Source of the DNA: Vulcanimicrobiota bacterium
Lineage (GTDB): Bacteria; Vulcanimicrobiota; Vulcanimicrobiia; Vulcanimicrobiales; Vulcanimicrobiaceae
DNA length: 64,000 nucleotides
NCBI GenBank assembly: GCA_963777315.1
Contig: CAVZQC010000002.1
Location: 800,001 to 864,000 of the forward strand
Reading direction: 5' to 3'
Below, one piece after another: positions 11,731-64,000 of this stretch; position 1 is the first letter of the stretch; the number at the start of each line of letters is the position of its first letter. The translations under genes were made by a program, and so were the position numbers. The notes beneath the pieces were generated by a model. The model was given only the letters and a program-made list of their open reading frames with translations. It did not search any database and was not told the origin of the DNA.

Positions 11731-12563
11731 ACGCCGATCGAATCCCGGCGATCGCGAATGAACTGCGGCGCCGCGTTCTGAGCGCCGTCCAGCACGCCGG
11801 CGCCGGACATATCGGCGGCGTTCTCTCGGCAGCGGAGATGCTGGCAGCGCTTTACTTTCACGTGCTGCGCATCGATCCGGCGCGCCCGGACTGGCCGGAT
11901 CGCGATCGCTTCATTCTTTCTAAGGGCCATTGCGCGATCGGACTGTACGCGGTACTCGCGTTGCGCGGATATTTCGACATCGAAGAACTCGACCGGTTCG
12001 ACGCGATCGATTCACCGCTGCAAGGCCATCCCGACATGACGAAGGCGCCCGGGCTCGACATGTCGACCGGTTCACTCGGGCAGGGACTCTCGCCGGGCCT
12101 GGGCATGGCGCTCGCCGCACGGAAGTTGGGCCGCGCGTTTCGTACCTGGGTCATGCTCGGCGACGGCGAGATCCAGGAAGGGCAGATTTGGGAGGCGGCT
12201 TTCTGCGCTTCGCGTTATCAAGCCGACACTTTGACCGCGATTTTGGATTGGAATCATCTGCAGCAGTTCGGCTGGGCAACCGCGGACGGCTACGCCTCCA
12301 TCGCGCGGCGCGACCCGACCGACGATCCGCGCGCAAAGTGGGAAGCGTTCGGCTGGAACGTGCTCGAATGCGACGGCCACGATGCGTCCGCTTTTATTGA
12401 CGCCTGCGACGCGGCGTCGGCAACTCGCGGAAAACCGTCGATCATCATCGCGCACACGATCAAGGGCAAGGGCGTATCGTTTATGGAGAACGACTACACA
12501 TGGCATTCGCGCCCCCTATCCGACGCCGACGTTGCGCGCGCGTTTGCGGAGCTGCGAGGCTGA
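11727..12563 (+). CDS. Split transketolase, N-terminal (TPP-binding) subunit
   Basis: GHIGG, DRDRFILSKGH, LQGHP, STGSLGQG, GDGEIQEG, HTIKGKG; ATGA overlap with iolE. Confidence 0.93.
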   Translation: MNADRIPAIANELRRRVLSAVQHAGAGHIGGVLSAAEMLAALYFHVLRIDPARPDWPDRDRFILSKGHCAIGLYAVLALRGYFDIEELDRFDAIDSPLQGHPDMTKAPGLDMSTGSLGQGLSPGLGMALAARKLGRAFRTWVMLGDGEIQEGQIWEAAFCASRYQADTLTAILDWNHLQQFGWATADGYASIARRDPTDDPRAKWEAFGWNVLECDGHDASAFIDACDAASATRGKPSIIIAHTIKGKGVSFMENDYTWHSRPLSDADVARAFAELRG

Positions 12564-43623: not shown

Positions 43624-44091
43624 ATGCGATGGGCGTTGTGGTGGTTCGCCGTCTTCGCGGCGTACGTTATCACTGTTTTAACCCAAAACGGCAGCGAAAT
43701 AATCGCAGGCGCCATCATCGCCGCCTTCGCACTCATCATCGTCGCGGTCGCGTTGCGCAACGGCGACCCGGGAGTGCGCGCGCGCTGGTCCTGGCTGCGC
43801 CATTTGGCGGGCGTGCCGGCGCGCATGATTACCGATGCGGTGCTCGTGGGCAAACGCATCGTGAGCACGCTGGTAGCGGGCGGCAATCTGGACGGCTACT
43901 TCATTCGTCTGCCGTACGACGTGGGCGAACGCGACGATCCCTGGACGATGGGACGTGAAGGCCTGGCGATTTTCGGAATCAGCGCCTCGCCCAATTCTCT
44001 GGTCACCGAAGTCGATTTGCGCGGCGAACTGGTGCTGCACAAGCTGGTCGCCGACGCACAGCCGCACGCCTCGCCGCAGTGGCCGCTGTGA
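43624..44091 (+). CDS. mrpE: Mrp antiporter subunit E-like
   Basis: Two N-terminal TMs, SASPNSLV...LVLH.L motif; first gene of the mrp cluster. Confidence 0.65.
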   Translation: MRWALWWFAVFAAYVITVLTQNGSEIIAGAIIAAFALIIVAVALRNGDPGVRARWSWLRHLAGVPARMITDAVLVGKRIVSTLVAGGNLDGYFIRLPYDVGERDDPWTMGREGLAIFGISASPNSLVTEVDLRGELVLHKLVADAQPHASPQWPL

Positions 44092-44354
44092 GCGTGAGTT
44101 CGTTCGACGGTTTACTGTTCGGTACGGAGCTGCTCTTCGTGCCGCTTGCGCTGGGGATTTACGTGGCACTGTCCGCAGACACCGTGCGCCGGCTCGTCGC
44201 CCTGCAATTTACCGGCGTCATCGGAGCGCTGATGTTCGTCCTGCTGTCGATTGCGTTCGCCAGTGAGTCGTTTGCCGAACTGGGCATTGCGGTAGCGATG
44301 CTGTCCATCGGCGGAGGCCTCGCCTACGCGCATTTCTTGGAGCGCTGGCTCTGA
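44088..44354 (+). CDS. mrpF: Mrp antiporter subunit F
   Basis: RRLVALQ, three TMs, C-terminal AYAHFLERWL. Confidence 0.8.
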   Translation: MSVSSFDGLLFGTELLFVPLALGIYVALSADTVRRLVALQFTGVIGALMFVLLSIAFASESFAELGIAVAMLSIGGGLAYAHFLERWL

Positions 44355-44641
44355 TGGCGCGTCAGGTTGCAACGGCGGTGGTGCTGCTGCTCGCGGCGCT
44401 CGTCGCCCTGATTTCGGTGTTGGGCATTCTGCGCAGCAAAAACAACTTCGCGGCGCTGCACTGCAGCGGAATGACCAACGTCCTGCTGCCGATCCTGTGC
44501 ATGATCGCCGTGCTGATCGAAATACCCGCCGGGCAGTCCACCGTGAAGATGGCCGTGGTCACCGTCGTGCTGCTGATGGGCGGCCCCATCACCTCGCACG
44601 CGATTGCCGTGGCCGAATACCGCCGTAAGCCGCGCAAATGA
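44354..44641 (+). CDS. mrpG: Mrp antiporter subunit G
   Basis: GILR..N.FAALH, PITSHAIA.A. Confidence 0.82.
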   Translation: MARQVATAVVLLLAALVALISVLGILRSKNNFAALHCSGMTNVLLPILCMIAVLIEIPAGQSTVKMAVVTVVLLMGGPITSHAIAVAEYRRKPRK

Positions 44642-44874
44642 GCCTGCTGGAAATCGTTCTGTACTTGGTGGTTGCGGTCGTCGGGGGAGCCGTCGTCTTC
44701 AGCAAACGGCCGGTAAACCAACTGTTCATCTATTCGTTGTACGGCGGCCTCATGGCGCTGTTGTTCTTTGCGCTGCACGCGCCCGACGTTGCCCTCTCGG
44801 AGCTGACGGTCGGAACCCTGGCGATTCCGCTCATGGTGCTCGTAGCGCTGATGAAAACGGCAGACCGCACGTGA
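44638..44874 (+). CDS. DUF4040 / MbhD-like Mrp subunit (stand-alone MrpA C-terminal segment)
   Basis: APDVALSELTVG motif. Confidence 0.82.
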   Translation: MSLLEIVLYLVVAVVGGAVVFSKRPVNQLFIYSLYGGLMALLFFALHAPDVALSELTVGTLAIPLMVLVALMKTADRT

Positions 44875-45623
44875 ATCCCAAGTTCAGGACGGCGTTCTTT
44901 GCGGTATTCGGCGCCATTGCTTTCGGCGCGCTGCTGTACGGAGTGACGGGTCTGCCGCGGTTCGGGTCGTTCAGCGGCGCGTACAGCGACTATTTACTGC
45001 AAGCCGCGCCCATCGAGCGCCATATCATGAACGTCGCCACGGCGGTCAACTTCGATTACCGCGGCTTTGACACGCTGGGCGAAGAGTTCATTTTTTTTAC
45101 GTCGGTTACCGGGGTGCTCTTCATGCTCGGCGCCTTGCACGCCAAGGCCGAGCAGCATAAAGAGCCGATGGAGCTGCCTGCAATGCGGGCGCAAACCGGA
45201 GCGATCCGGTGGTTCCCGATGGGACTCGCGGCGTTTCTGGTGGCGATGGCGATGAACGTCGCGGCGCACACGACCGTTACCCCGGGAGGCGGATTTCAAG
45301 GCGGCGCGGTCTTCGGCAGCGCCATAGCCTGCGTGTATCTGGGCGTGGGTTATGCGGCGTTCACCGCGGTCGCCAAACGTGAGGTGCTCAATTCGCTCAA
45401 GGCGTTCGGCGCGGCGTGCTACGCGTTCATCGGCATCGCCACCGCTTTTGCGGCCGGCGCATTTTTGAAAAATTCGTTGTACGTGGGGCAAAGCGGCGCG
45501 ATCGTTTCGGGCGGCACGGTGCAGCTGATCAACGCTGCGGTGTTCATCGAGATCGGCTGCGGCTTTACCGTGCTGCTGCTCGTGTTTTTGCATCAGATGC
45601 GCCACATCGAAGAGCCCGACTGA
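44871..45623 (+). CDS. mrpB: Mrp antiporter subunit B (MnhB domain)
   Basis: NVATAVNFDYRGFDTLGEE, H...TPGGGFQGG. Confidence 0.88.
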   Translation: MNPKFRTAFFAVFGAIAFGALLYGVTGLPRFGSFSGAYSDYLLQAAPIERHIMNVATAVNFDYRGFDTLGEEFIFFTSVTGVLFMLGALHAKAEQHKEPMELPAMRAQTGAIRWFPMGLAAFLVAMAMNVAAHTTVTPGGGFQGGAVFGSAIACVYLGVGYAAFTAVAKREVLNSLKAFGAACYAFIGIATAFAAGAFLKNSLYVGQSGAIVSGGTVQLINAAVFIEIGCGFTVLLLVFLHQMRHIEEPD

Positions 45624-45982
45624 TGAGCAACTGGACGCTGTACTTGCCGTACGCCGTCGCATTCTGGCTGTTCTTCATCGGGTGTTTCGGGATCGTGCAC
45701 AGCCGCAACCTGATTCACACGATCCTGTGCATCACGGTCGTACAGTCTTCGACGTACGTGCTGCTGCTCTCCATCGGCTTTCATGCCAAGGCCGGCGCGC
45801 CGATTTTCTCGCAGACCAATCCGCCGGGTTCGCCTTCGGTGGACCCGATCGTGCAGGCGCTCACGCTGACCGACATCGTCGTCGGAGCCACCGTTACGGC
45901 GCTGCTGCTGGCGCTGACCCTGCAAGTCTATCGCCGCCGCGGCACGATCGATCCGCGTAAACTGCGCCCAATGAGCGAATGA
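45623..45982 (+). CDS. mrpC: Mrp antiporter subunit C
   Basis: SRNLIH, DPIVQALTLTDIVVG. Confidence 0.88.
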   Translation: MSNWTLYLPYAVAFWLFFIGCFGIVHSRNLIHTILCITVVQSSTYVLLLSIGFHAKAGAPIFSQTNPPGSPSVDPIVQALTLTDIVVGATVTALLLALTLQVYRRRGTIDPRKLRPMSE

Positions 45983-47802
45983 ACGCCGCCGCAGTTTCGG
46001 TGCTGGCGCCGCTGTGCGTAGCGGTTCCCCTCGTGATGGCCGCGCTGTTGGTGCCGTTTTCCAAGCACATGCCGCGCACGCTTTCGTGCGCGCTGGCGTC
46101 GGTCACGTCGCTGGCGGTGCTGGGAATGGGCATCGTGCTGACGCTGTACACTGCGGCGAACGGGCCCATCGTGCACTGGATGGGCGGCTGGACGCCGCAT
46201 CACGCGCTGGCGATCGGCATCAGCTTTACGGTCGATCCAATCGGTGCGGGCCTTGCGAGCTTCATCGCGCTGCTGGTTTTTGCGGCAACGGTTTACACGT
46301 GGATGGGGTTCGACATCGTCGGCACGCTGTTTCACTCGCTCCTCATGGCGTTCTTGGCGTCGATGTGCGGCTACGCGCTAACCGGCGATCTGTTCAACAT
46401 GTTCGTCTGGTTCGAATTGATGACCGCCGCGGCGATAGCGCTGACTGCGCACAAAATCGAGGAAGCCGAATCGATCGAAGGCGCAATCAATCTTGCGGTG
46501 ACCAATACCATCGCCGGATTCATGGTGCTGCTCGGCATCGCGCTGCTGTACGGCCGCACCGACGCGCTCAATCTGGCGCAGCTCGGGCAAGTGGTCGCGC
46601 AGCGGCCGGCCGACGGCCTGATCGCGGTATCGTTCGGGCTGATCGTCGCCGGGTACTTCGTCAAAGGCGCCGTCGCGCCGTTCCATTTTTGGCTCGACGA
46701 CGCGCACGCGGTTGCGCCTACGCCGATCTGCGTGTTGTTTTCGGGCATCATGGTGCAGGTGGCGCTGTACGGCGTTGCGCGCATTTATTGGACGGTGTTT
46801 TCCGGAGCGCTGAGCGTTCACGCCCACGAAGTCAAAGCATTGTTCGTGGGCGTGGGTATCGCCACGGCGCTTATCGGAGCCGTCATGGCGTACGCGCAGC
46901 GTCACATAAAACGCCTGCTTGCGTTTTCGACCGTGAGCCACTCGGGCATGTTCGTCGCGGCGCTGGGGCTATTCAGCGCGGCCGGCGCTGCGGGCGCGGC
47001 GATGTTCATCCTCGCGCACGGTCTGATCAAAAGCGCGCTGTTCGTTTGCGCCGGCAATTACTTGAATCGCTTTCGTTCGCTCGATGAAGAAGAGCTCGGT
47101 GGGCGTGGGCGCGCCATGCCGGTCAACAGCGCAGTGTATTTGATCGGCGGCCTCGCGCTGGCGGCCATGCCGCCCTTTGCGATTTCGGCCGCCAAAGTGC
47201 TGTACGACGCGGCGATGAAGGATCGCGGCTTATTTGCGGTAGCGATGTTCATGGCGTTCGCGTCGGCCATCGACGCCGGCGCCGTGCTGCGCTCGGGCAT
47301 TCACATTACTTGGGGCATCGGCAAAGCGCAGCAAAGCGGCTTTTCGCCGCGCGAAGAAGAGACCGAGTGCGACGGCGAGCGTTTGGAGCGAACGCCGTGG
47401 CCTGCGCTCGCGCTTCCGATCGCGTTGATGGCGCTTGCGACTTGGGCCGGCATGAGCGGGGACCTGTGGCACGCGGTCAGCCGTGCCGCGCACGCTTTCG
47501 TCGACCGCGGATACTACGTCGCGTCGGTGCTGCACAACGTTCATTCCCCACTGCCTGCCGTCGCGCCGGACCACCGAACCGCTCAGGACGTCGCCATCAA
47601 TCTGAGCGTTACGGCGGCCGCCATTCTCGCTGCTTTCATCGGACTGTATCGCGGTCATCTGCCGCAGCTGCTTCGCCCGGTGTTGGGACCGCCGCTCAAG
47701 GGGCTGCGGGACCTGCACAGCGGCATTTTCACCGATTACGTGGCGTACATGGTCTTCGGAATTGCGGCGTACGCGGTGTGGCTGGTCGCGACGATTCGGT
47801 AA
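45979..47802 (+). CDS. mrpD: Mrp antiporter subunit D (proton-conducting, complex I subunit 5-like)
   Basis: TGDLFNMFVWFE, KGAVAPFHFWLDDAH..AP, IKRLLAFSTVSH, HGLIKSALF. Confidence 0.9.
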   Translation: MNAAAVSVLAPLCVAVPLVMAALLVPFSKHMPRTLSCALASVTSLAVLGMGIVLTLYTAANGPIVHWMGGWTPHHALAIGISFTVDPIGAGLASFIALLVFAATVYTWMGFDIVGTLFHSLLMAFLASMCGYALTGDLFNMFVWFELMTAAAIALTAHKIEEAESIEGAINLAVTNTIAGFMVLLGIALLYGRTDALNLAQLGQVVAQRPADGLIAVSFGLIVAGYFVKGAVAPFHFWLDDAHAVAPTPICVLFSGIMVQVALYGVARIYWTVFSGALSVHAHEVKALFVGVGIATALIGAVMAYAQRHIKRLLAFSTVSHSGMFVAALGLFSAAGAAGAAMFILAHGLIKSALFVCAGNYLNRFRSLDEEELGGRGRAMPVNSAVYLIGGLALAAMPPFAISAAKVLYDAAMKDRGLFAVAMFMAFASAIDAGAVLRSGIHITWGIGKAQQSGFSPREEETECDGERLERTPWPALALPIALMALATWAGMSGDLWHAVSRAAHAFVDRGYYVASVLHNVHSPLPAVAPDHRTAQDVAINLSVTAAAILAAFIGLYRGHLPQLLRPVLGPPLKGLRDLHSGIFTDYVAYMVFGIAAYAVWLVATIR

Positions 47803-54796: not shown

Positions 54797-54998
54797 CGAC
54801 GGTATAGGCTGGGCAATTGCGGAATGGTACGCGCTTGGCTCGAACGGTTTGCTGAAGTCGTGAATTAACAGGAAACGCACGCATCTACAAGTGAGCTGCC
54901 GCGACCGTGTGCCGCGTTCATGTGGACTGTAACTGAACATAGGCGAAGAAGCGCCTTCGCCCAGATCCCCTGGCCCGCAGGGGTTTGAGCGTTTCCGA

Positions 54999-55045
54999 TG
55001 GCGGAGATGGGGCGATGGTCAGACCCTGACCCCTTACATGCGAAG
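54999..55045 (-). other. Decayed 3' half of tRNA-Ala(CGC), probable att site of an integrative element
   Basis: The minus strand reads CTTCGCAT-GTAAG-GGGTC-AGGGT-CTGACCA-TCGCCC-CATCTCC-GCCA: CGC anticodon loop, acceptor 3' strand with U70, CCA end, mutated T-loop, no 5' half. Confidence 0.7.
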
Positions 55046-55234
55046 GAAAAAAGCCACAAAACCGCGCGCTCGTAAGAAACCGAAGAAGTAGCGGGATTTT
55101 GCCCGTGAAATTGGACTTTTTGCGCGCTTCCTTCGTCCGCCGGCGTCCGCGATTTCCGCCGGTTTCCGCGCCAATTGTCGTACGATTGTCGTAAAACGAC
55201 GACGCTCCCCAATCGAGCCGGCCTGAATCGGCCA

Positions 55235-56632
55235 CTAATAGATCGTATCAGTCAGATAGCCAGATCTCCCGTAGCAAGGCAGACCGTACTTTGTCTTGTG
55301 CGGGTTCAAGCGCGAATTCGCCTTAGTGCGCCGGAAGCGCTTTCCGCAAGCCGGACACTCATACACGTATATCGGCCCGGATCTAGAGCGGGCGCGGCGG
55401 ACAAACGAGTGCGACGACGCCGACCGTGGGGGAAGCGCTGGTATGCCGCCCATCTCAGTAGGCGTTAACTCAATCGCAAACCTTGGCGTGAACGTCTGCG
55501 CTGACACTGTCGCCCCTTGTATACGATCGACCCTATAGCTACGTAGTTCTCCCGTGTTGCTACGAATTGCGTAGAGCAGTACATGACCATCGCCTGTGCG
55601 ACGCAATGAGTAAGGCTCTATGGATCTGACGCTGCCGTTATAAAGGAGATTTACGCAGAGATGATTTGACGCCGCAAATCGCACAATTTCAAGGTGTGAA
55701 GACGCGGGAACGCCTGCGCCGCGCAGTGCACCCACCGGAGGTCTGAGCAACACCTCGCCTGGCCCTATTGGCGCAATTGCTGGCGTGGCCGGAGCGGCGC
55801 CAGTCGCCAGCCAGTTGAAAAGATCTGGAAGGGTCGACCAAAAGGATTCGAACGATGGCAAAGCAGGCAGTTGATGGCCCAGCATTACTGCCCAGTCGAC
55901 TTGCAATTCGTCGAGCGCGAGGGCAACCGTTGCGACGGTCGGCATGGTGATTCCCTTGAATGCGCATTTGCGCTGCAGTACCATCAATACGTCCGCCGCA
56001 GCGGGCCTAATCTGTTCGAACCTAAACAGGTTCACGACATCATACAGATCGCGGGGTCGCGTCCTTTCCCCTAGAGCGCGAAGCTTTTCACCCATCAGCT
56101 CGCTGTAGGAGTAACATTGGGCCGCCATTCCCGTTGCTGGTCTGTCGCTATACGGATGGCCGATAGGCCGCTCTACGGGTGAGTGTACGATGATCTCATC
56201 TGCAGTAAGGTCCAGCTTTATGCGAGGTAACGCACCAGCACGCCGTAACGGTCCATTGTAGTAAATTCTCCCTTCGCAACTCGTGTTGCCGCGAGGATTT
56301 TGGTAAATATCAAAGCGCAACTGGTCAGCGGGGATATCGATTCCGACATTGTCGTAAAGCCACGAAGCGATTTTGGTGAATTCGTCGCGCAAAAATCGTT
56401 CATCGAGATGTACGGTATCCGAAAGCGTGAAATCAAGGTCTTCCGAAAAGCGATAGGTTTCGAAGTAGCACTTCTTGAGGCAGGTGCCTCCCTTGAATAC
56501 CCACGTTGCGGCTAGCTCGGGTTGTGCATAGATTGCCGCAAGTAACCAACCAAGTACGTAGTCTTTCTCAACTATGTCCGGTGACAGCGACAACTCCGTC
56601 GCGACAGCAAGAATTTCTCCGCGATCAATCAT
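55235..56632 (-). CDS. AbiEii-family nucleotidyltransferase toxin fused to WYL and C-terminal Zn-finger domains
   Basis: EKDYVL, FKGGTCL, RFSEDLDF, EKLRAL.ER.RPRDLYD; then WYL (LLY.GSVRSIEPYSL...RSYRVDRI); then CPAC...H...C. Confidence 0.88.
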   Translation of the reverse strand: MIDRGEILAVATELSLSPDIVEKDYVLGWLLAAIYAQPELAATWVFKGGTCLKKCYFETYRFSEDLDFTLSDTVHLDERFLRDEFTKIASWLYDNVGIDIPADQLRFDIYQNPRGNTSCEGRIYYNGPLRRAGALPRIKLDLTADEIIVHSPVERPIGHPYSDRPATGMAAQCYSYSELMGEKLRALGERTRPRDLYDVVNLFRFEQIRPAAADVLMVLQRKCAFKGITMPTVATVALALDELQVDWAVMLGHQLPALPSFESFWSTLPDLFNWLATGAAPATPAIAPIGPGEVLLRPPVGALRGAGVPASSHLEIVRFAASNHLCVNLLYNGSVRSIEPYSLRRTGDGHVLLYAIRSNTGELRSYRVDRIQGATVSAQTFTPRFAIELTPTEMGGIPALPPRSASSHSFVRRARSRSGPIYVYECPACGKRFRRTKANSRLNPHKTKYGLPCYGRSGYLTDTIY

Positions 56633-57443
56633 GCAGCCCCGACGGCACGAGCCAGCTGGAAGGTACCCTGAGCTGCCACCGCTTGACAACCCGAGGCGAT
56701 TTCTGCGATGGATCCAGATTGACGAGCCCGGTGTTTAATCGGGATGAACAAGCCTTTACAAGTTCGGATGGTGCTCCCGCTCGTTCCGCTATGAAACCGA
56801 GCCGCTTGAAGATAGCACCATTTGCTACACGGTCCGCGTAGCTGATTAAGGTTTCCGGATCTGCATCTCGTCGCGAAAGATATTGGCGAAAGCAGTCGTA
56901 CACGTGCCGAATTCCACCGCCGTCACTCGGGCGATCCAACATGTCGATGATTGTGCGATGGACATCGGATACGTCTATTCTGACACTGCCTTGCCAGATA
57001 GCCTTCGTCCCGAAAAGATAATTTGTCGGAATGTGTCGCACGACGAACGACACGTCGTACGTGCTTTGATGCGTCTGCCTTACTGGGCGCGCGGTGTGAA
57101 CGAACACCGTTCTGAAAAGCTGTTCTGTCAGGTCCCAGTACTGAGCGGCGCTTGCAGCAGCCACGTAGCCTGGGCTGAACAACGTCGGGACCAGGACCCA
57201 GACGTCTTCCAGAACTCGGTCATCGAGCGATGATGACGGGGGCACCGGGGCATAAAGGCCTCGCCGGATCCTGGTAAGGAGGCCGTTACTTTTCCAGCCG
57301 GCTAGCAGCCTAGACGCAGCCCCAGGCGGAAGGCCTAAGACCGAGCCGACGTCATTTGCGGAGATGAGGTTGCCCGCTTGCCTGAGGACCAGAGACAGCC
57401 TCTCACGACTTTGCGCTTGCCTAGAGGCCTTGGTACGCTCCAA
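56625..57443 (-). CDS. AbiEi-family type IV antitoxin / transcriptional regulator
   Basis: wHTH ending LTRIRRGLY, GYV...SAAQYWDLTEQ, VSDVHRTIID, KRLGFI; overlaps the toxin start by 8 nt. Confidence 0.85.
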   Translation of the reverse strand: MERTKASRQAQSRERLSLVLRQAGNLISANDVGSVLGLPPGAASRLLAGWKSNGLLTRIRRGLYAPVPPSSSLDDRVLEDVWVLVPTLFSPGYVAAASAAQYWDLTEQLFRTVFVHTARPVRQTHQSTYDVSFVVRHIPTNYLFGTKAIWQGSVRIDVSDVHRTIIDMLDRPSDGGGIRHVYDCFRQYLSRRDADPETLISYADRVANGAIFKRLGFIAERAGAPSELVKACSSRLNTGLVNLDPSQKSPRVVKRWQLRVPSSWLVPSGLHD

Positions 57444-57647
57444 CTTCAGTAATCACTCCATGACGGTGTTTTCTGTAGTTACAGTATACCATAGTGAAGG
57501 TGTGACTGCTTTGCTACTACCAGGGCAGGCTTGCGCTCATCCCGGACTTTGGGATTTTTGGCCGGTACCTTTCGGCCGGCGCAAAGCGGTCGACAACAGT
57601 GGGCGTACGCCGACCACAGTGCGAGCGGCGTTTTTGTATAGCACGAT

Positions 57648-58064
57648 TCAGCGAGATTGGTCAGCCCGCCTTACGATTCGCATCACTTCTGCGACAACGT
57701 CTTCCGTATCGTCATGCTCCCAAAAGCGAAGTACTGTCCACCCATTGTCAACTAGCGCGGCAGTTGTCTCCCGATCACGCTCGCGATTTTTATTGAGCTT
57801 TTGCCGCCACCACGCGGCATTGTGTTTCGGCCAAGACGCGTGGACCGGGCACGCGTGCCAAAAACAACCGTCAATAAATATGGCTACCTTCCACTTTGTG
57901 AAAACAATGTCTGCGCGTCTTCGGAGACTGCTACTCGGGCAAATGTCCACGCGATACCTTAAGCCCAGCGCGTGAAGGCGTCTCCGAACAAGCAGCTCAC
58001 AAGGCGTATCCTTGCGCCGCTGCCGCCGCATCTTATCTTTGACAGCTTTTGAAATTGGCTTCAT
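57648..58064 (-). CDS. vsr: Very short patch repair endonuclease
   Basis: MRRQRRKDTPCE, ADIVF, FIDGCFWH.CP.H, N.ERD, GWTVLRFWEH. Confidence 0.93.
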   Translation of the reverse strand: MKPISKAVKDKMRRQRRKDTPCELLVRRRLHALGLRYRVDICPSSSLRRRADIVFTKWKVAIFIDGCFWHACPVHASWPKHNAAWWRQKLNKNRERDRETTAALVDNGWTVLRFWEHDDTEDVVAEVMRIVRRADQSR

Positions 58065-58142
58065 TGTCGAGGTAACTAGAAACTTCGGGCGCGATGAACC
58101 TAACCCCAGCAGGAGGTGAAAGGTACCCATCAAGACTTCGTT

Positions 58143-58166
58143 GTGACGTCAAGGAGTTGACGTCAC
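58143..58166. promoter_or_regulatory. Perfect inverted repeat in the divergent vsr / MTase-operon promoter
   Basis: GTGACGTCAA-GGAG-TTGACGTCAC; each arm holds palindromic TGACGTCA and a TTGACG -35-like hexamer. Confidence 0.7.
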
Positions 58167-58227
58167 GCTACAGAAAGTTGTCGCAAATCGCGCCTTTAAG
58201 GAGCGGCTTAGACCCACGAGGACGCTA

Positions 58228-58500
58228 ATGCAACAATTGCCGCGTGAAGATGAGTTCCGATCATGGCTGGCCGCGAGAGGAGGTTTACACGGTCGATCGC
58301 TCGGTGACATCGTATCGCGATTGCGCCGTGCCGCGAGTTGGGGTGTAAATATTGAGGACTCGCTGACGGACGCGGAAGTTATCTTCTGGTTGGGGCAACG
58401 CGAACAGTTCCAGTCCTGTACGATGAACGTGCGCTCACAAATTCGGCGTGCCTTGTCTTACTATCGCGCCTTTATGCAGGAGCGCCGAGACGTTAAGTGA
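58228..58500 (+). CDS. Small helical protein (integrase core-binding/SAM-like) coupled to the MTase
   Basis: EFRSWL...RSLGDIVSRLRR...SQIRRALSYYRAF; SD GAGGA; GTGA overlap with dcm. Confidence 0.75.
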   Translation: MQQLPREDEFRSWLAARGGLHGRSLGDIVSRLRRAASWGVNIEDSLTDAEVIFWLGQREQFQSCTMNVRSQIRRALSYYRAFMQERRDVK

Positions 58501-59573
58501 GTCGTAAGTCAGCGCGTAGAAAACGAAAAAAGCCTCAGCAAGCGTTCACTGCCGTTGATCTTTTCTGCGGAGCCGGAGGCGTGACCAGCGGCCTCAAGAG
58601 TGCCGGCGTGCGTGTTCTCGGCGCAGTCGATAATGACGAGGATTGCGTACGAACGATGAAGGCAAATCATCGTCGGACGAAGGTGCTGAATCTGGATTTA
58701 AGCGCCTGCGCCGCTGCAGATCTCCGAGAAGCGCTGAGAATAGAACGCGGCGCTTTGGACATTCTGACGATCTGTACACCGTGCCAGGCCTTCTCAACAA
58801 TGGCAATCAAGAACGCAAAGCCGAGCGATGCTAGAGCGGCACTTGTCACACGAATGGGTGATTTTGTCGAAGAACTTTTCCCGCGCGCTCTTATAATGGA
58901 AAATGTGCCGAGTCTCGCTCGGAACCAGCGCTTCTTTAAGCTTCTTGCGCGCTTGAAGAGCCTCGGATACTCCGTCGAATATCAGGTGGTCTGCGCGTCT
59001 TCAGCGCGCGTTCCCCAGCGGCGCAAGAGGCTTGTTTGCATCGCGGTGCGGGGTTTGGATGAGCTCCCAAAACTTGATATATCGTTGTCCCCCGGCCAAT
59101 CTAAAACAACGGTGAGACAGGCTTTTGGAGCGCTAGCGAATTGCTCAAAGGACGATCCATTACACGAGATTCGTAGACCCAAGGGTATTGTAGCGGAGCG
59201 GATTCGCGCAATACCACAGGATGGCGGAAGTCGCCATAGTCTGAATGGCAGGCTTGAACTACCATGCCACAAGCGCTTAAAGCGGCGGGGTATTGGTGGA
59301 TCGACAAACGTCTACGGCAGAATGAAATGGGATGACGTGTCGCCCACGTTAACGACACGATGCACGACGCCCGCCTGCGGTAGGTTCCTGCACCCGTGTG
59401 AGGATCGGGCGATCACACTTCGTGAGGCAGCGTTGCTACAGTCTTTTCCTCCGTCGTATCGCCTTGTGGGGACCGCGACATCGATTGAGAGGCAAATAGG
59501 TAATGCGGTGCCGCCGCTACTTGCAAAGGCCACAGTGGACCACGTGCTGGAGGCGCTCAAAGCGAAACCATAG
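58497..59573 (+). CDS. dcm: DNA (cytosine-5) methyltransferase (DrmMII-like)
   Basis: Motifs I DLFCGAGG, IV PCQAFS, VI ENV, VIII PQRRKR, IX REAALLQSFP, X QIGNAVPP. Confidence 0.95.
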   Translation: MSRKSARRKRKKPQQAFTAVDLFCGAGGVTSGLKSAGVRVLGAVDNDEDCVRTMKANHRRTKVLNLDLSACAAADLREALRIERGALDILTICTPCQAFSTMAIKNAKPSDARAALVTRMGDFVEELFPRALIMENVPSLARNQRFFKLLARLKSLGYSVEYQVVCASSARVPQRRKRLVCIAVRGLDELPKLDISLSPGQSKTTVRQAFGALANCSKDDPLHEIRRPKGIVAERIRAIPQDGGSRHSLNGRLELPCHKRLKRRGIGGSTNVYGRMKWDDVSPTLTTRCTTPACGRFLHPCEDRAITLREAALLQSFPPSYRLVGTATSIERQIGNAVPPLLAKATVDHVLEALKAKP

Positions 59574-59791: not shown

Positions 59792-62700
59792 ATGCCGATC
59801 GAGCCTAAAGCATATTCTGCATTTACGCTTTGGCTTGCGCACCGGATTGTGGATCGGGCAAGTGGTCATGCGGTCCCGGACCATCCGGTGGCGGGCGAGT
59901 TGATGTTGCGTCGCCCCGCAGATGCCTTTTTTATCGGCTCCGTAGGACCTACTGCTCTTGCGCTACAGGAGCGCGGGAACAGCTCCCCTCCTGCAGTCGG
60001 GATTGATTTCTTTGTTGCAAATCTCGATCGAATCGTTATCTCCGGGTCGTTCGCCTACTACCGTCCAGAACTTCCGAGTCTGGAATTGTGTCGGGCGAGT
60101 GCCGCCGACACTGCGGACCCGGACTTTGAGATTCCAGTTGTAATGCGAAAGCGTGCAAAGACCTTCGAGTTGAATATTCAACTCGAAGTTGGGCAGCACC
60201 GTGAGCAAATCGAGATCCCGAACGACGGCTTGGACCGGGCATACGGCGCGCCGTCACAAGGGCACTATAAAGTCAGCAAAGCCGCGCTAAACGACGATGA
60301 AGCGTTTCGTCAAGCGCTGCAACGTTTAAACCTAAAGCCGCCGGCACTTCGGCTCGCCGCATCGATCACCGTAAACGTAACGCACGATGCACTTCGTGGT
60401 TATAGAGTGCAGTTCAGATTTGTCAACGAAAGTCTCAATACCCGTTGGCAATCGGAGCCACGATTGCAGCGTCGCATCGACCGCATCGAAGAGCCGTTCC
60501 TGTTTGACATAAACCTATCTGTCGAATTGCGGGACTGCAATTTGGTGCCTACCACGCTGGATCTCGAGGCCGAGGACTTTCGCTACGATAATCTGCTCTG
60601 GGCGGACGGCTTCAACACTTCCGCGGAGTACATCCCCAAGTCAAACTCTCTAAGGACCCGATACGCGCCTGTCGCGCATCAATTGCGCGTTAAACATGCA
60701 GAAGGTGCAGAGGACCTTCGATTCTCGAAATTTGCGTCGGACTCCATGGGCCAGTTGAATACGTTGCTCCAGCAAATGGAGAGGTACGCTAGTGAATGGC
60801 CGCCCTCGACACTGCCTAACGACGACCAACGTCAAGCCGAAAATCGGGATCGCGAACAGTTTGCAGACGAGGTGTCCCGGTTCAAAAAAGGCATCGTGCA
60901 ACTCAATGCGCAGCCGGACGCGTTAAAGGCCTTCCTCTCGACCATGCAAGTATTCGCGAATATTTGGGCGGTCCGTGACGTTAGTGGGTGCGCCGCTTGG
61001 CGAAGATTTCAAATAGTATTTATCGTGTCAGTAATTGGCGGCTTGTGCGGACGAGCGACATCGCATTACGACGATCTGAAAATTGTCGACATTCTTTGGT
61101 TCCCAACAGGGGGAGGCAAGACGGAGGCCTATCTTGCCATAATGTTGTGGCAAGCTTTTTTCGATCGTTTGAGAGGTAAGAAGACCGGGGTCACTGCAAT
61201 GATGCGGTTCCCGCTCAGATTACTCAGTTTGCAACAGATGCAGCGTGTTATTGAGGCTGTATGCTCAGCGGACAGTGTACGCGCATCCGACAAGGCGTAC
61301 GCCGGTGATCCATTTAGCGTAGGCTTCTTAGTCGGAAGTAATGCCACCAAAAACAAATTAGACGAGGCAGACATACGACAAATCCGGGAGCAGCTTAGTC
61401 TTCCGTTTGAAAAACGAAGTGATTGGGTCAGGCGGCATAGGGTTGTCTCAAGGTGCCCCTACTGCCACTCTGCCAGCTCTCTCGATATACGTATAGACGA
61501 TTTGAATAGACTCGTACACTATTGCACCAACAGTATGTGCGATAAAACGTTACCACTTTACGTAATCGACGACGAAGCGTATCGTTATCTACCCACAGTT
61601 CTAGTTGGAACTGTCGACAAGCTTGCACTGATTGGACAGAACTTACGCTGGAGACAGACTGCTTGGTTTCGTCGATTCTAAGTGCCCACTCCATGGTTAC
61701 ACTTCTGGCCGCAAATGCTCTGTCTATCCGTGCAAAGAGAAGTTGGAAAGCGTCCGACTATTCGATGCTGCGCCGGCCGTCGAAGTTCAGGACGAACTTC
61801 ATCTGCTAAGAGAAGAACTCGGGGTCGTTGCCTCTCACTACGAGACCGTCGCGCATTCCATTATCGAGAAGTATGGCAACGCCCCGATTAAAGTAATAGC
61901 GTCAACCGCAACCATTCAAAATCACAGGCGACAGGCGAAAGCGCTGTACGCCCGTGAAAGTCGGCAATTTCCTGTGATGGGTAGGACCCTTGCGGCGTCG
62001 TTCTATGCAGACGTGCAGGGATACGACCAACGAATATTCGTTGGCATAATGCCGAGACGGCTGACCCACATAAACGCCTTAATGCAACTTATGGAGATCG
62101 AGCACGAATGTATTCAGCGTTTACGGCGTCGGTTGATGGTACAGCCAATTGTTGATGATGGTGAACTCGACCAACTTCTGGATTACTATGAAGTGGTTGT
62201 CACGTATACGCTTCGAAGAATAGACCAGGACCGCGTCGATGGGTCGATAGAGTCGCAGGTAAACCCTTATCTGGCTAGCGATAATCTTCGCCCAATTAGT
62301 AATAAGCCAATGACTGCAACCACCACAACTGAAGACGTAACGAAGATTCTTGCGGAACTGGAGCATCCCAATGATGTCGTGGATGCCAGGTTGTCGTCTA
62401 TTACTGCAACGAGTATGATCTCGCATGGAGTGGACGTCGACCGGCTAAACATCATGAACTTCTTCGGCATGCCATTCTCAGCGGCCGAGTATATTCAGTC
62501 AAGTAGTAGAGTTGGTCGTAAGGTGTGCGGATGTGTATTTATTGTGTACCAAGCTCACAAAGAGCGCGAACGGAGCCATTATCAGCGTTTTATAAAATAT
62601 CACGAGTTTCAAAATCGCCTTGTCGAACCGGTTCCGCTGAACAGATGGGCGGCTCGCGCTTTAGAGTTCACGTCGCCGGGCCTGGTCATGGCAGCCATCT

Positions 62701-63038
62701 TTGCTCTCTATGGAGGCCGGTGGAGCGGACCTAGTCACAAGTCGCTGTGGCTTGCAAAAGAGGTCTTAAGAGCCTTCGACCAGAGGGCGTTCTCGGTTGA
62801 CGAAATCACTAATGCGCTTTTGGATGCTCTATTCGTCGAACCTAGCGATCGAGATAGTGTGAGGGAACATCTAACGTTTTTGATACGGGAGGGGCTCGAG
62901 CGCGCGAGGATCGTCGATAGTCGCACCGGTTTTGGGAACTGCATGTCACCTGAGCCGATGCAGAGTTTAAGAGATGTGGAACCAAGCTTTAACGTCGATG
63001 TCTTGGGTCCGAACATGTGGTACGTGGAGGCGAACTAG
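59792..63038 (+). CDS. drmA: DISARM DrmA-like SF2 helicase, apparent +1 frameshift at 61658
   Basis: WFPTGGGKTEAY, PLRLLSLQQ, GTVDK, QDELHL, ATSMISHGVDVDRLN, EYIQSSSRVGR. Removing A61658 in CAG-A-CTG joins the two ORFs (1081 aa). Confidence 0.82.
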
Positions 63039-64000
63039 TGGAGAGATCGTCGTCGCAGATACTATTCAACTATTTACCAGGCAAGACGTTTGACCACGAG
63101 ACGTACAGGGTTGTTTGCCGCGTCGATAGAGTCGACGGTGACAGATTGGATCGGCTTGATCGCGCTACAATGGTTGCTCGCGTCAATTCGCGGCTCGACG
63201 CAGCAATGCTCGCGGGAAATTCTATAGTCAATTACGACGAGCGTAGCCGCCGCGACGTTGAGTCATGGACCATGAAACGTCCGATGCAAGTCGTCGCTCG
63301 CGTCTTTCCGCTATTACTGCAATGCCGCCTAGGGTGCAAGCGCGTCTTCGAAATGCGTGAGGACGGGATGGGCCCGCGCCTTCGGCACTGTCCGGTGTGC
63401 AAGAAGCGGCTAACTCAGCTTCAACAAATATTGTTCCATGAATGCGGTACGCTACGGTCTTTGGAAGTGCCAAATTGTCCGAAGCATGGTCGATCCAACA
63501 TGTCTCTGGACGACCGTGGCAGCCTTTCTACCTCGGATTGGAGATGGATTTGCCGCGCAGCAGGATGCGATCAGACCATTTCGAGGCCGCTGACCCGACG
63601 ATGCGACTGCGGGACCTATTCGAAGACTTCGTTGAGACCTGATCTATACCGTTCGAGCCATGTATATCGTCCGCACAAAGAACAGATCATCGATTTCCCA
63701 GTAAAGGAAAGGCGCCTGTTTGTAGAGGGGCCTAATGCGAACGCCGCCGTTTTGGCATCATTTGTTGGTGTGGGCGAGGACGACGTGCTGGCGCAAGAGG
63801 AAGTGCTGGCTCAACAGCAAGCCATGGAGACGCTGGCTGCGTCGCTCGAGAAAGATAATCCCGAGCTAGCGCGGCAAATACGAGCTGAGCTTCAACGAAA
63901 GAAGGCTTCAGCTGGCAATCTTGTTGAGACTGCCAAACTCTACTTCGAAGAACCACTGCAAGGCATTATTGCTGAAAAAATACTGGACTACGTCGTTGCA
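63038..64000 (+). CDS. drmB: DrmB-like (DUF1998-type) protein, N-terminal part; runs off the window
   Basis: Not in the ORF track. GTG overlaps the drmA stop (TAGTG) with SD GGAGG, and the frame is open for 321 codons: MERSSSQILFNYLPGKTFD...FPLLLQC...C...CPVC...HECG...CPKHG...WIC...CDC. The diagnostic C-terminus lies outside the window. Confidence 0.7.
   Translation, partial: MERSSSQILFNYLPGKTFDHETYRVVCRVDRVDGDRLDRLDRATMVARVNSRLDAAMLAGNSIVNYDERSRRDVESWTMKRPMQVVARVFPLLLQCRLGCKRVFEMREDGMGPRLRHCPVCKKRLTQLQQILFHECGTLRSLEVPNCPKHGRSNMSLDDRGSLSTSDWRWICRAAGCDQTISRPLTRRCDCGTYSKTSLRPDLYRSSHVYRPHKEQIIDFPVKERRLFVEGPNANAAVLASFVGVGEDDVLAQEEVLAQQQAMETLAASLEKDNPELARQIRAELQRKKASAGNLVETAKLYFEEPLQGIIAEKILDYVVA

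Follow-up and report, generated by a model that had tools for sequence, protein, structure and literature searches.

The 64,000-nucleotide stretch analyzed here (the window; contig CAVZQC010000002.1 of a Vulcanimicrobiota bacterium, positions 800,001 to 864,000) carries an abiEii gene whose product joins a nucleotidyltransferase (NTase) to a WYL domain and a zinc ribbon, and which directly follows abiEi. On balance, we are inclined to read this pair as a mobile two-gene AbiE cassette in which the NTase toxin has its own ligand-binding switch. The architecture is real, occurs widely and was already documented as a domain string in 2014, so it is not new in itself. New here are a predicted site at which the WYL domain docks on the enzyme's regulatory loop, which has separate evolutionary support, and a large sister clade in which the fusion occurs as a single gene. 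The parts of the cassette are as follows.

55235..56632, minus strand: abiEii-WYL-zinc ribbon gene, 465 amino acids (aa) (open reading frame, Pfam, PADLOC AbiEii PDLC02317).
55802..56632, minus strand: DUF1814/AbiEii NTase domain, residues 1-277 (Pfam, fold match, motifs).
55457..55705, minus strand: WYL domain, residues 310-392, helix 311-322 plus barrel (model, fold match).
55376..55456, minus strand: disordered basic linker, residues 393-419, including RRARSRS (model, charge count).
55238..55375, minus strand: all-beta CCHC zinc ribbon (C426, C429, H445, C453), optional in the family (alignment, model).
[quoted passage not shown]
57432..57490, minus strand: imperfect inverted repeat, 25-bp arms and 9-bp spacer, spanning a TATACT -10-like box and the start of abiEi.

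The complete AbiEii NTase that an earlier reading of the letters alone (the sequence-only reading) had proposed is confirmed by several lines of evidence. Pfam AbiEii matches residues 29-264 (E 7.6e-34), and all four motifs of AbiE toxins are present (I-IV: hGG, R-x-S/T-x-D-h-D, K...R and +DxxD), whose definitions and catalytic residues come from mutagenesis of AbiEii of Streptococcus agalactiae (PMC3985639). The key residues are G48-G49, R61, S63, D65, D67, K183, R190, D195 and D198. Among 113 aligned homologues (the best 120 without seven apparently redundant ones), G48, G49, R61, D67, K183, R190, D195 and D198 are invariant and D65 is kept in 112; S63, which precedes the first catalytic Asp by two residues and is putatively the phospho-acceptor, is kept in 111. 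The AlphaFold2 model built on these 113 sequences (mean predicted local distance difference test, pLDDT, 87; predicted template modelling score 0.77) recovers both the NTase and the WYL fold. Residues 1-279 of the model resemble MenT3 (Z 20.5, root-mean-square deviation, rmsd, 3.4 Å, 261 aligned) and MenT4 (Z 19.0, rmsd 3.4, 253 aligned), and sequence searches of PDB entries, run with the full protein and with a profile, returned MenT4 alone (E 0.055 and 0.0018) apart from zinc fingers that were not significant. MenT3/TglT and MenT4 are thus the best fold matches, with Ser63 at the place of MenT3 Ser78, although they are single-domain proteins of 11-19% identity. The PADLOC AbiEii model PDLC02317 (PADLOC v2, 396 positions) matches residues 1-395 (E 2.7e-175); since it spans the NTase and the WYL domain, NTase-WYL proteins were already among its training clusters. 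The type IV label given to the toxin earlier has to be dropped, as a 2026 preprint reclassifies AbiE as type VII (bioRxiv 10.64898/2026.01.19.700257). Three full-length NTase-WYL relatives (P0204, P0207 and P0242) have altered catalytic motifs (e.g. K47 to T, D67 to E, K183 lost) as well as degenerate WYL arginines, and appear to be decaying or repurposed copies.

A WYL-like domain had been suggested at about 55470-55700, and one was found at 55457-55705. The Pfam WYL match (residues 313-376, E 2.8e-4) scores 21.3 bits, just below the curated cut-off of 21.8. In the model, an Sm/Hfq-like barrel is preceded by a helix, as the definition of the WYL domain asks, and residues 294-386 match PafBC (Z 10.4, rmsd 2.5, 86 aligned), CapW (Z 10.0, rmsd 2.5, 80 aligned), DriD (Z 9.7, rmsd 2.7, 84 aligned) and BrxR (Z 9.6, rmsd 2.2, 80 aligned), with overall ranges of Z 9.3-10.4 and rmsd 2.2-2.8. 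The C-terminal half is also nearest to WYL clusters of the Atlas (0.85-0.88), matches that serve as leads only. The N-terminal HTH of WYL transcription regulators is not present, and the NTase occupies the N-terminal part. A conventional HTH-WYL regulator is encoded on the host chromosome about 17 kb past the end of the genomic island that carries the cassette, beside a glyoxalase-like open reading frame (ORF) (L082:11621-12643).

When NTase residues 1-280 and WYL residues 287-393 were predicted as two chains, together with three controls, the docking reached an ipSAE (interaction prediction score from aligned errors) of 0.64, and the best control 0.00. The mark used for ipSAE is reached by 116/157 solved and 2/215 mismatched pairs, and it is only roughly applicable with a custom alignment. 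Docking runs agree in at least 83% of contacts, and the pLDDT of the partners is at least 82; because the two chains are parts of one chain, this result shows docking and not a two-protein complex. The interface comprises residues 9-15, 54-60, 155-162, 201-208 and 255-263 on the NTase side and 299-325, 375-380, 386 and 390-393 on the WYL side, with the closest contacts between Y60, T59, E58 and 255-257 and E315, R318, F319 and S322. The docking helix is formed by WYL residues 311-322, and loop 54-60 leads directly into the motif R61-F-S63-E-D65-L-D67, so that the WYL helix is predicted to dock on the loop before the catalytic motif and Ser63. In AbiEii and MenT1 the equivalent loop shifts by 6-7 Å on antitoxin binding, which places the phospho-acceptor, and the same movement is predicted for MenT3. 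Moreover, model residues 305-386 align by range with CapW 116-199, and by these ranges the docking helix would fall in the CapW linker, whose helices relay ssDNA (single-stranded DNA) binding.

The same surface stands out in evolution. A conservation contrast between 48 WYL-bearing and 21 WYL-less NTases, computed before the docking result, showed that the NTase columns most relaxed without WYL are T59 (48/48 vs 6/21), R204, E58, P259 and L255. The 31-residue interface contains all of the top five and seven of the top 15 columns (hypergeometric p 1e-5 and 4e-4), an overlap reached by 0/500 label shuffles (which ignore kinship); the control test on ribbon presence placed 0/5 and 1/15 columns there.

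The second main finding is a clade of relatives with no AbiEi beside them. A plasmid search with the toxin gave 34 records, including three distant full-length matches (25-29% identity) from Sinorhizobium mexicanum, Streptomyces and Sphingomonas, which belong to one well-supported clade in the FastTree phylogeny. Members of this sister clade keep K47-G-G, R61, S63, D65, D67, E178, K183, R190, D195 and D198 as well as the CCHC ribbon. In metagenomes, the best 80 of 304 stretches encoding a relative, plus one viral locus, made up 81 further loci. An AbiEi profile built from 78 sequences found no match in these 81 loci (60/81 with at least 1 kb upstream, 46/81 on both sides) and none in the three plasmid loci, the rest of the host genomes not being searched; as a control, the profile found abiEi in 13/17 loci, including those of toxins 24-32% identical to the query. 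An operator-like repeat (score at least 16) was detected in 1/72 sister loci vs 48/77 loci of the window's clade and 3% of shuffles. No ORF of at least 30 aa stands beside more than 5/84 sister loci, the most frequent neighbor being a recombinase-like family (5/84). The clade is a candidate single-gene system. Its loci (L083:6001-7395, L084:6001-7239, L085:6001-7398 and L088-L168) are lone genes among defense genes: 31/119 flanking ORFs, in 23/40 loci, have PADLOC matches at E 1e-10, compared with 4/40 host-chromosome ORFs used as control. On the Streptomyces plasmid (L084:889-7239), the lone sister gene comes after pPIWI-RE and a CBASS-like cyclase, the latter accompanied by a small ORF of membrane type.

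The sister clade also appears to hold on to its WYL domain. Sister proteins of 152 aa or more were ranked by their NTase only. Among the best 120 of 2,096 matches, 111 have all three domains, five have NTase and WYL, and four have no WYL match; these four run on into the linker or the first WYL helix. WYL is thus kept in 116/120. In the window's clade, 6/21 WYL-less rows have a WYL-bearing neighbor at 57% identity or more. However, the sister set is shallower (mean identity 66% vs 43% for representatives of the other clade), and with such unequal sampling depth the contrast in WYL retention is suggestive rather than measured. The sister WYL domains carry the motifs EPYxLxxK, EYFYxxD and GIK.

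The abiEi gene is tightly coupled to the toxin gene, as the sequence-only reading had supposed. The toxin ATG overlaps the last 8 nt of abiEi, whose product matches Pfam AbiEi_4 above the cut-off and PADLOC AbiEi at E 3.9e-99. Residues T106-E107-Q108-L109 align with the D85-E86-I87 loop of S. agalactiae AbiEi (TDEI of 6Y8Q/9HLO), which is essential and used to neutralize the toxin, and would form the corresponding loop here. The inverted repeat pairs 18/25 positions, a value reached by 0/200 shuffles, and is probably the AbiEi operator; a long inverted-repeat operator of this kind has been described for AbiE (PMC3985639). The S. agalactiae AbiEi-AbiEii system (PMC3985639; bioRxiv 10.64898/2026.01.19.700257) thus shares the overlapping bicistron, the wHTH antitoxin, the long inverted-repeat operator, motifs I-IV, the phospho-acceptor position and the antitoxin loop, whereas its AbiEii has neither WYL domain nor zinc ribbon. 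In two homologous loci (L032:4267-5100 and L025:6239-7030), the opposite strand carries a further abiEi-type gene close to the cassette.

The survey of the architecture and its neighbors that had been called for shows that the fusion is widespread and that, in the window's clade, abiEi is its sole constant neighbor. Of 8,000 candidates scored in the protein search, 7,683 were matches, the majority of them without the fusion; the top 120 share 54-65% identity (query apart), mostly over the full length. In species-level genomes, the best 80 of 541 stretches encoding a relative were used; they come from many bacterial groups, with at least 5 kb on one side in 68 and on both sides in 41. The abiEi gene is directly upstream in 80/80 of these loci. 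In 62 of them the toxin has the ribbon, in 12 it ends after WYL, in five it stops early and in one it runs off the contig. At greater depth, 68 of the best 150 representatives (50% clustering) have a whole NTase: 25 consist of the NTase only, 28 add WYL, 14 add WYL and ribbon, and one is irregular. On a FastTree phylogeny of 69 NTase domains (including 10 added close homologues and excluding nine rows whose tails looked frameshifted or whose domains were cut), 13 changes of the WYL-less label are required. Of these, at least eight are forced by well-supported branches, and for WYL and ribbon each at least eight changes are forced in this way. Such repeated gain and loss means that both domains are optional in the window's clade; more distant WYL-less loci (L087, L172-L177) carry abiEi.

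No conserved third gene was found in the 80 loci of the window's clade, where the commonest neighbor families are type I methyltransferases (7/80) and relaxases (6/80). The neighbors are a mixture of restriction-modification, BREX, Wadjet, Druantia, Thoeris and prokaryotic Argonaute (pAgo) genes. Of 196 listed flanking ORFs, 133 were scanned with PADLOC, and 34 of them, in 20/35 loci, gave matches at E 1e-10. The cassette is carried on islands and plasmids. The toxin has no match in the annotated phage collection, while among viral contigs three carry the full fusion with abiEi and one the sister form. No close homologue was found in the 60 related genomes searched, the best match (E 1.9e-12) having no WYL.

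These findings can be joined into a proposed mechanism. DUF1814 toxins add pyrimidine nucleotides to tRNA 3' ends, which stops translation, and AbiEi represses its operon and induces auto-phosphorylation of the toxin at the residue equivalent to Ser63. Judged by its motifs, the window's pair has the features for both operon repression and auto-phosphorylation, and by analogy with the characterized relatives the toxin would tail tRNA 3' ends, with AbiEi as repressor and as inducer of Ser63 auto-phosphorylation. [quoted passage not shown] The basic linker and the ribbon would be an optional affinity aid that replaces the missing WCX domain and can be lost, and no partner helicase would be required. 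In the sister clade, the same architecture would work as a single gene with WYL as its sole visible brake; since a toxin without antitoxin needs some brake, gating that is off at rest is favored. The earlier idea of a one-protein sensor-effector thus gains support from the WYL docking and from the antitoxin-less clade.

The WYL surface fits this reading in part. The barrel carries Y331, R336, Y341, R344, R364, Y366, R367 and R370. In a weak alignment (E 0.7), R336, R364, Y366, R367 and R370 correspond to PafB R181, R208, F210, R211 and R214. Five PafB arginines (R181, R208, R211, R214 and R204) are tied to ssDNA binding, and four of them are kept here, R336 in 112/113, R364 in 113/113, R367 in 109/113 and R370 in 97/113 homologues. 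In the model, these four arginines lie outside the named interface residues.

Several observations weigh against the proposed switch. PafB R204 has no counterpart in the toxin, and in 78 deeper relatives R367 falls to 49/78 and R370 to 45/78. The WYL triplet's tyrosine is replaced by Leu353 (L in 89, V in 20 and I in 3 of 113), and in PafB the Y196A exchange of this tyrosine abolishes ssDNA binding. The WCX domain, which walls the ssDNA pocket in CapW, DriD and PafBC, is missing after residue 393, where the model has only a disordered linker and the 46-residue ribbon. In the sister clade the WYL domain is without the R-x-x-R pair, so its ligand may differ. The predicted docking is a contact, from which neither regulation nor its direction follows, and T59 taken alone is not significant (8 independent pairs, 3-4 the same way, 0 opposite, p 0.125). 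WYL is dispensable in the AbiEi-type clade, as the 25/68 representatives without it show. The control for defense neighbors is small and from one genome, and the PADLOC set includes unspecific matches. MenT4 keeps the equivalent Ser yet is unphosphorylated, so that the regulatory mode cannot be read off the DUF1814 fold, and S. agalactiae AbiE protected E. coli from 0/32 phages (bioRxiv 10.64898/2026.01.19.700257). We infer activation by nucleic acid rather than substrate delivery and, for every member, the ligand, the direction of control and the role in phage defense.

The main rival explanation, which fits the same data nearly as well as gating, is that WYL and ribbon hold the nucleic acid to be modified at the active site, as a substrate that could be a subset of tRNAs or else ssDNA or RNA from phage or damage, held by its 3' end; in the sister clade no antitoxin would then be needed, as the substrate arises only in infection. 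A WYL domain docked rigidly beside the catalytic loop, as modelled, would suit such delivery. CapW binds the 3' end of ssDNA, the end that an NTase extends, and the linker and the ribbon each have a net charge of about +5. Changes near the active site in the sister clade (T50 to N, R185 to K, A186 to C and R192 to H) also fit an altered substrate. However, WYL-less sisters have an unchanged set of catalytic residues, MenT/AbiEii enzymes need no additional domain to tail tRNA, and the contact is made on the regulatory loop by a helix that corresponds, by aligned range, to the signal-relay linker of CapW. We regard substrate delivery as possible but doubtful.

It is unlikely that the cassette is an ordinary addiction or abortive infection module under the sole control of AbiEi, with WYL and ribbon as structural or tuning extras (for stability or AbiEi affinity) and sister proteins that are weakly toxic or neutralized in trans. 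The constant abiEi neighbor, the operator in most loci and the repeated loss and gain of both domains agree with it, as does the presence of the cassette on islands and plasmids, since AbiE stabilizes mobile elements (PMC3985639). On the other hand, barrel surface arginines and aromatics outside the named interface are kept in 97-113/113 homologues, and the 81 loci without antitoxin or operator would be unexplained. Still less probable is a gate that reads a ligand other than ssDNA, such as a nucleotide messenger, a short RNA fragment or a phage protein. With neither the motif tyrosine nor WCX, the pocket is unlike those of known ssDNA binders, in the sister clade it is different again, and a c-di-GMP-sensing WYL regulator has been reported (PMC11880434); yet the kept arginines are those mapped to ssDNA binding in PafB, and cyclase genes lie near only two of the scanned sister loci (L084 and L117).

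The basic linker and the ribbon were also re-examined. The only stretch of the model with pLDDT below 50 is residues 394-416, and a linker net charge of at least +3 is found in 97/102 finger-bearing homologues. RRARSRS itself, present in 1/102 and lying within the disordered linker, was rejected as a conserved motif. The reported CPAC-x14-H-x7-C is indeed a zinc-ligand motif, but its spacing is C426-x2-C429-x15-H445-x7-C453, with x15 in place of x14. All four ligands are kept in 101-102/113 homologues, and the other 11 have no finger. A classical C2H2 finger was rejected, as the fourth ligand is an invariant Cys (41/41) and the ribbon modelled alone has three strands and no helix instead of a beta-beta-alpha fold. 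Pfam matches inside the ribbon (families MCM, bL33 and FmdB were considered) are all below cut-off. The best fold comparisons are an MCM protein (Z 4.2, rmsd 3.6, 44 aligned) and a mitoribosome chain (Z 4.0, rmsd 2.2, 44 aligned). At E 0.001, Foldseek matched nothing in either the PDB or the viral libraries, which does not imply a new fold. The Atlas clusters nearest to the ribbon alone (55238-55387) consist of unnamed proteins of 57-64 aa, mostly from phages (score 0.88-0.90); as a lead only, these are a possible origin or mimic of the ribbon.

An 18-kb island of 54.5% GC (genome 62.5%) has the cassette as its last unit; the other features of the island are listed below.

54992..55048, plus strand: degenerate partial copy of tRNA-Ala(CGC), the far attachment (att) site of the island (sequence comparison).
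57648..59573: vsr (minus strand), a 90-aa ORF and a C5 methyltransferase gene (plus strand); island neighbors, not conserved with the cassette.
59792..64000, plus strand: DISARM-like drmA (in two frames) and the start of drmB; neighbors, not part of the system.

The att remnant is 79% identical to tRNA-Ala(CGC), whose intact copy lies with a tyrosine integrase at 872,000-873,400 (G000:C2), 9 kb past the end of the window; the integrase end of the island (L081:12622-14492) also has an HTH_17 excisionase-like gene. The 90-aa ORF (58228-58500), between vsr and the methyltransferase gene and overlapping the start of the latter, has no Pfam, PADLOC or NCBIfam match and no relative in the 80 loci. 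Two ORFs of 228 and 150 aa between drmE and the integrase (L081:10131-10817 and 11838-12290) have no Pfam or PADLOC match. The class II DISARM-like set comprises a methyltransferase, drmA, drmB, drmC and drmE. It looks broken twice (window 59792-64000 and L081:4018-10080): drmA changes frame near 61665, for which an assembly error may be an alternative cause, and drmB is split just past the window by a complete IS3, its last 80 residues resuming behind the element. The drmC and drmE frames are open, and three further IS3 copies are found in the genome. That the toxin is a backup layer triggered by ssDNA from the neighboring DISARM helicase, as the sequence-only reading had proposed, is very improbable and was rejected: although the set shares the island and single homologous loci have a DrmA relative (L025) or a DrmD-type gene (L006), DrmA occurs in 1/80, DrmB in 0/80 and Vsr in 1/80 loci, the neighbors are of mixed defense types, and the local drmA and drmB are themselves interrupted. 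The shared location is incidental. A second DrmA-like helicase, 31-37% identical to the window's drmA, is encoded elsewhere in the genome (G000:C6:12032-13913). A compact operon at 43624-47802 encodes small subunits and one large membrane subunit and, by its motifs, appears to resemble an Mrp/Mnh antiporter set.

The literature search, most subscription journals lying outside its range, found no experimental work on either the fusion or the antitoxin-less clade, which agrees with the earlier statement that no experimental characterization of the fusion was known; besides the sources cited above, it drew on PMC6789036, PMC11375011, PMC11662680, PMC12041258, PMC7319586 and PMC11804915. The domain string itself is in print: Makarova et al. 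2014 (PMC4012209, DataSheet6) list AbiGII-like-nucleotidyltransferase+WYL+C2H2 with five proteins, and one sentence of that paper proposes a regulatory ligand-sensing role for WYL. Those proteins match the toxin in the order of the three domains and in length (393-486 aa, one of 333), but in the parts of the paper available the entry is a listing with no structure, neighborhood survey or experiment, its C2H2 label differs from the all-beta CCHC finger of the toxin, and neither the WYL docking site nor the antitoxin-less clade appears. The supplementary domain-class tables of PMC6789036 may list the architecture too. PafBC, DriD, CapW and BrxR share the WYL barrel and most of the arginine patch, but they are dimeric wHTH-WYL-WCX transcription factors, whereas the WYL of the toxin is joined to an enzyme and has no HTH, WCX or motif tyrosine.

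The WYL proteins of the cited papers are thus transcription factors, and here the domain is predicted to sit on the enzyme's own regulatory loop. The activating trigger of S. agalactiae AbiE has been called elusive, and WYL is unmentioned in the available part of that report (bioRxiv 10.64898/2026.01.19.700257). We tentatively suggest that WYL-fused DUF1814 enzymes are directly ligand-gated translation toxins, with the phospho-acceptor loop under cis control by the WYL helix. Such gating may supply the infection trigger for one large AbiE clade, and may have let the sister clade drop antitoxin and operator as single-gene sensor-effector immunity. The family offers natural controls (NTase only, NTase with WYL, and NTase with WYL and ribbon), with and without antitoxin, and both forms have cultured hosts: Rhizobium and Aromatoleum with abiEi, and Sinorhizobium, Sphingomonas and Streptomyces without it. 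If this proposal is true, AbiE detectors that require both genes would miss the single-gene systems of the sister clade.

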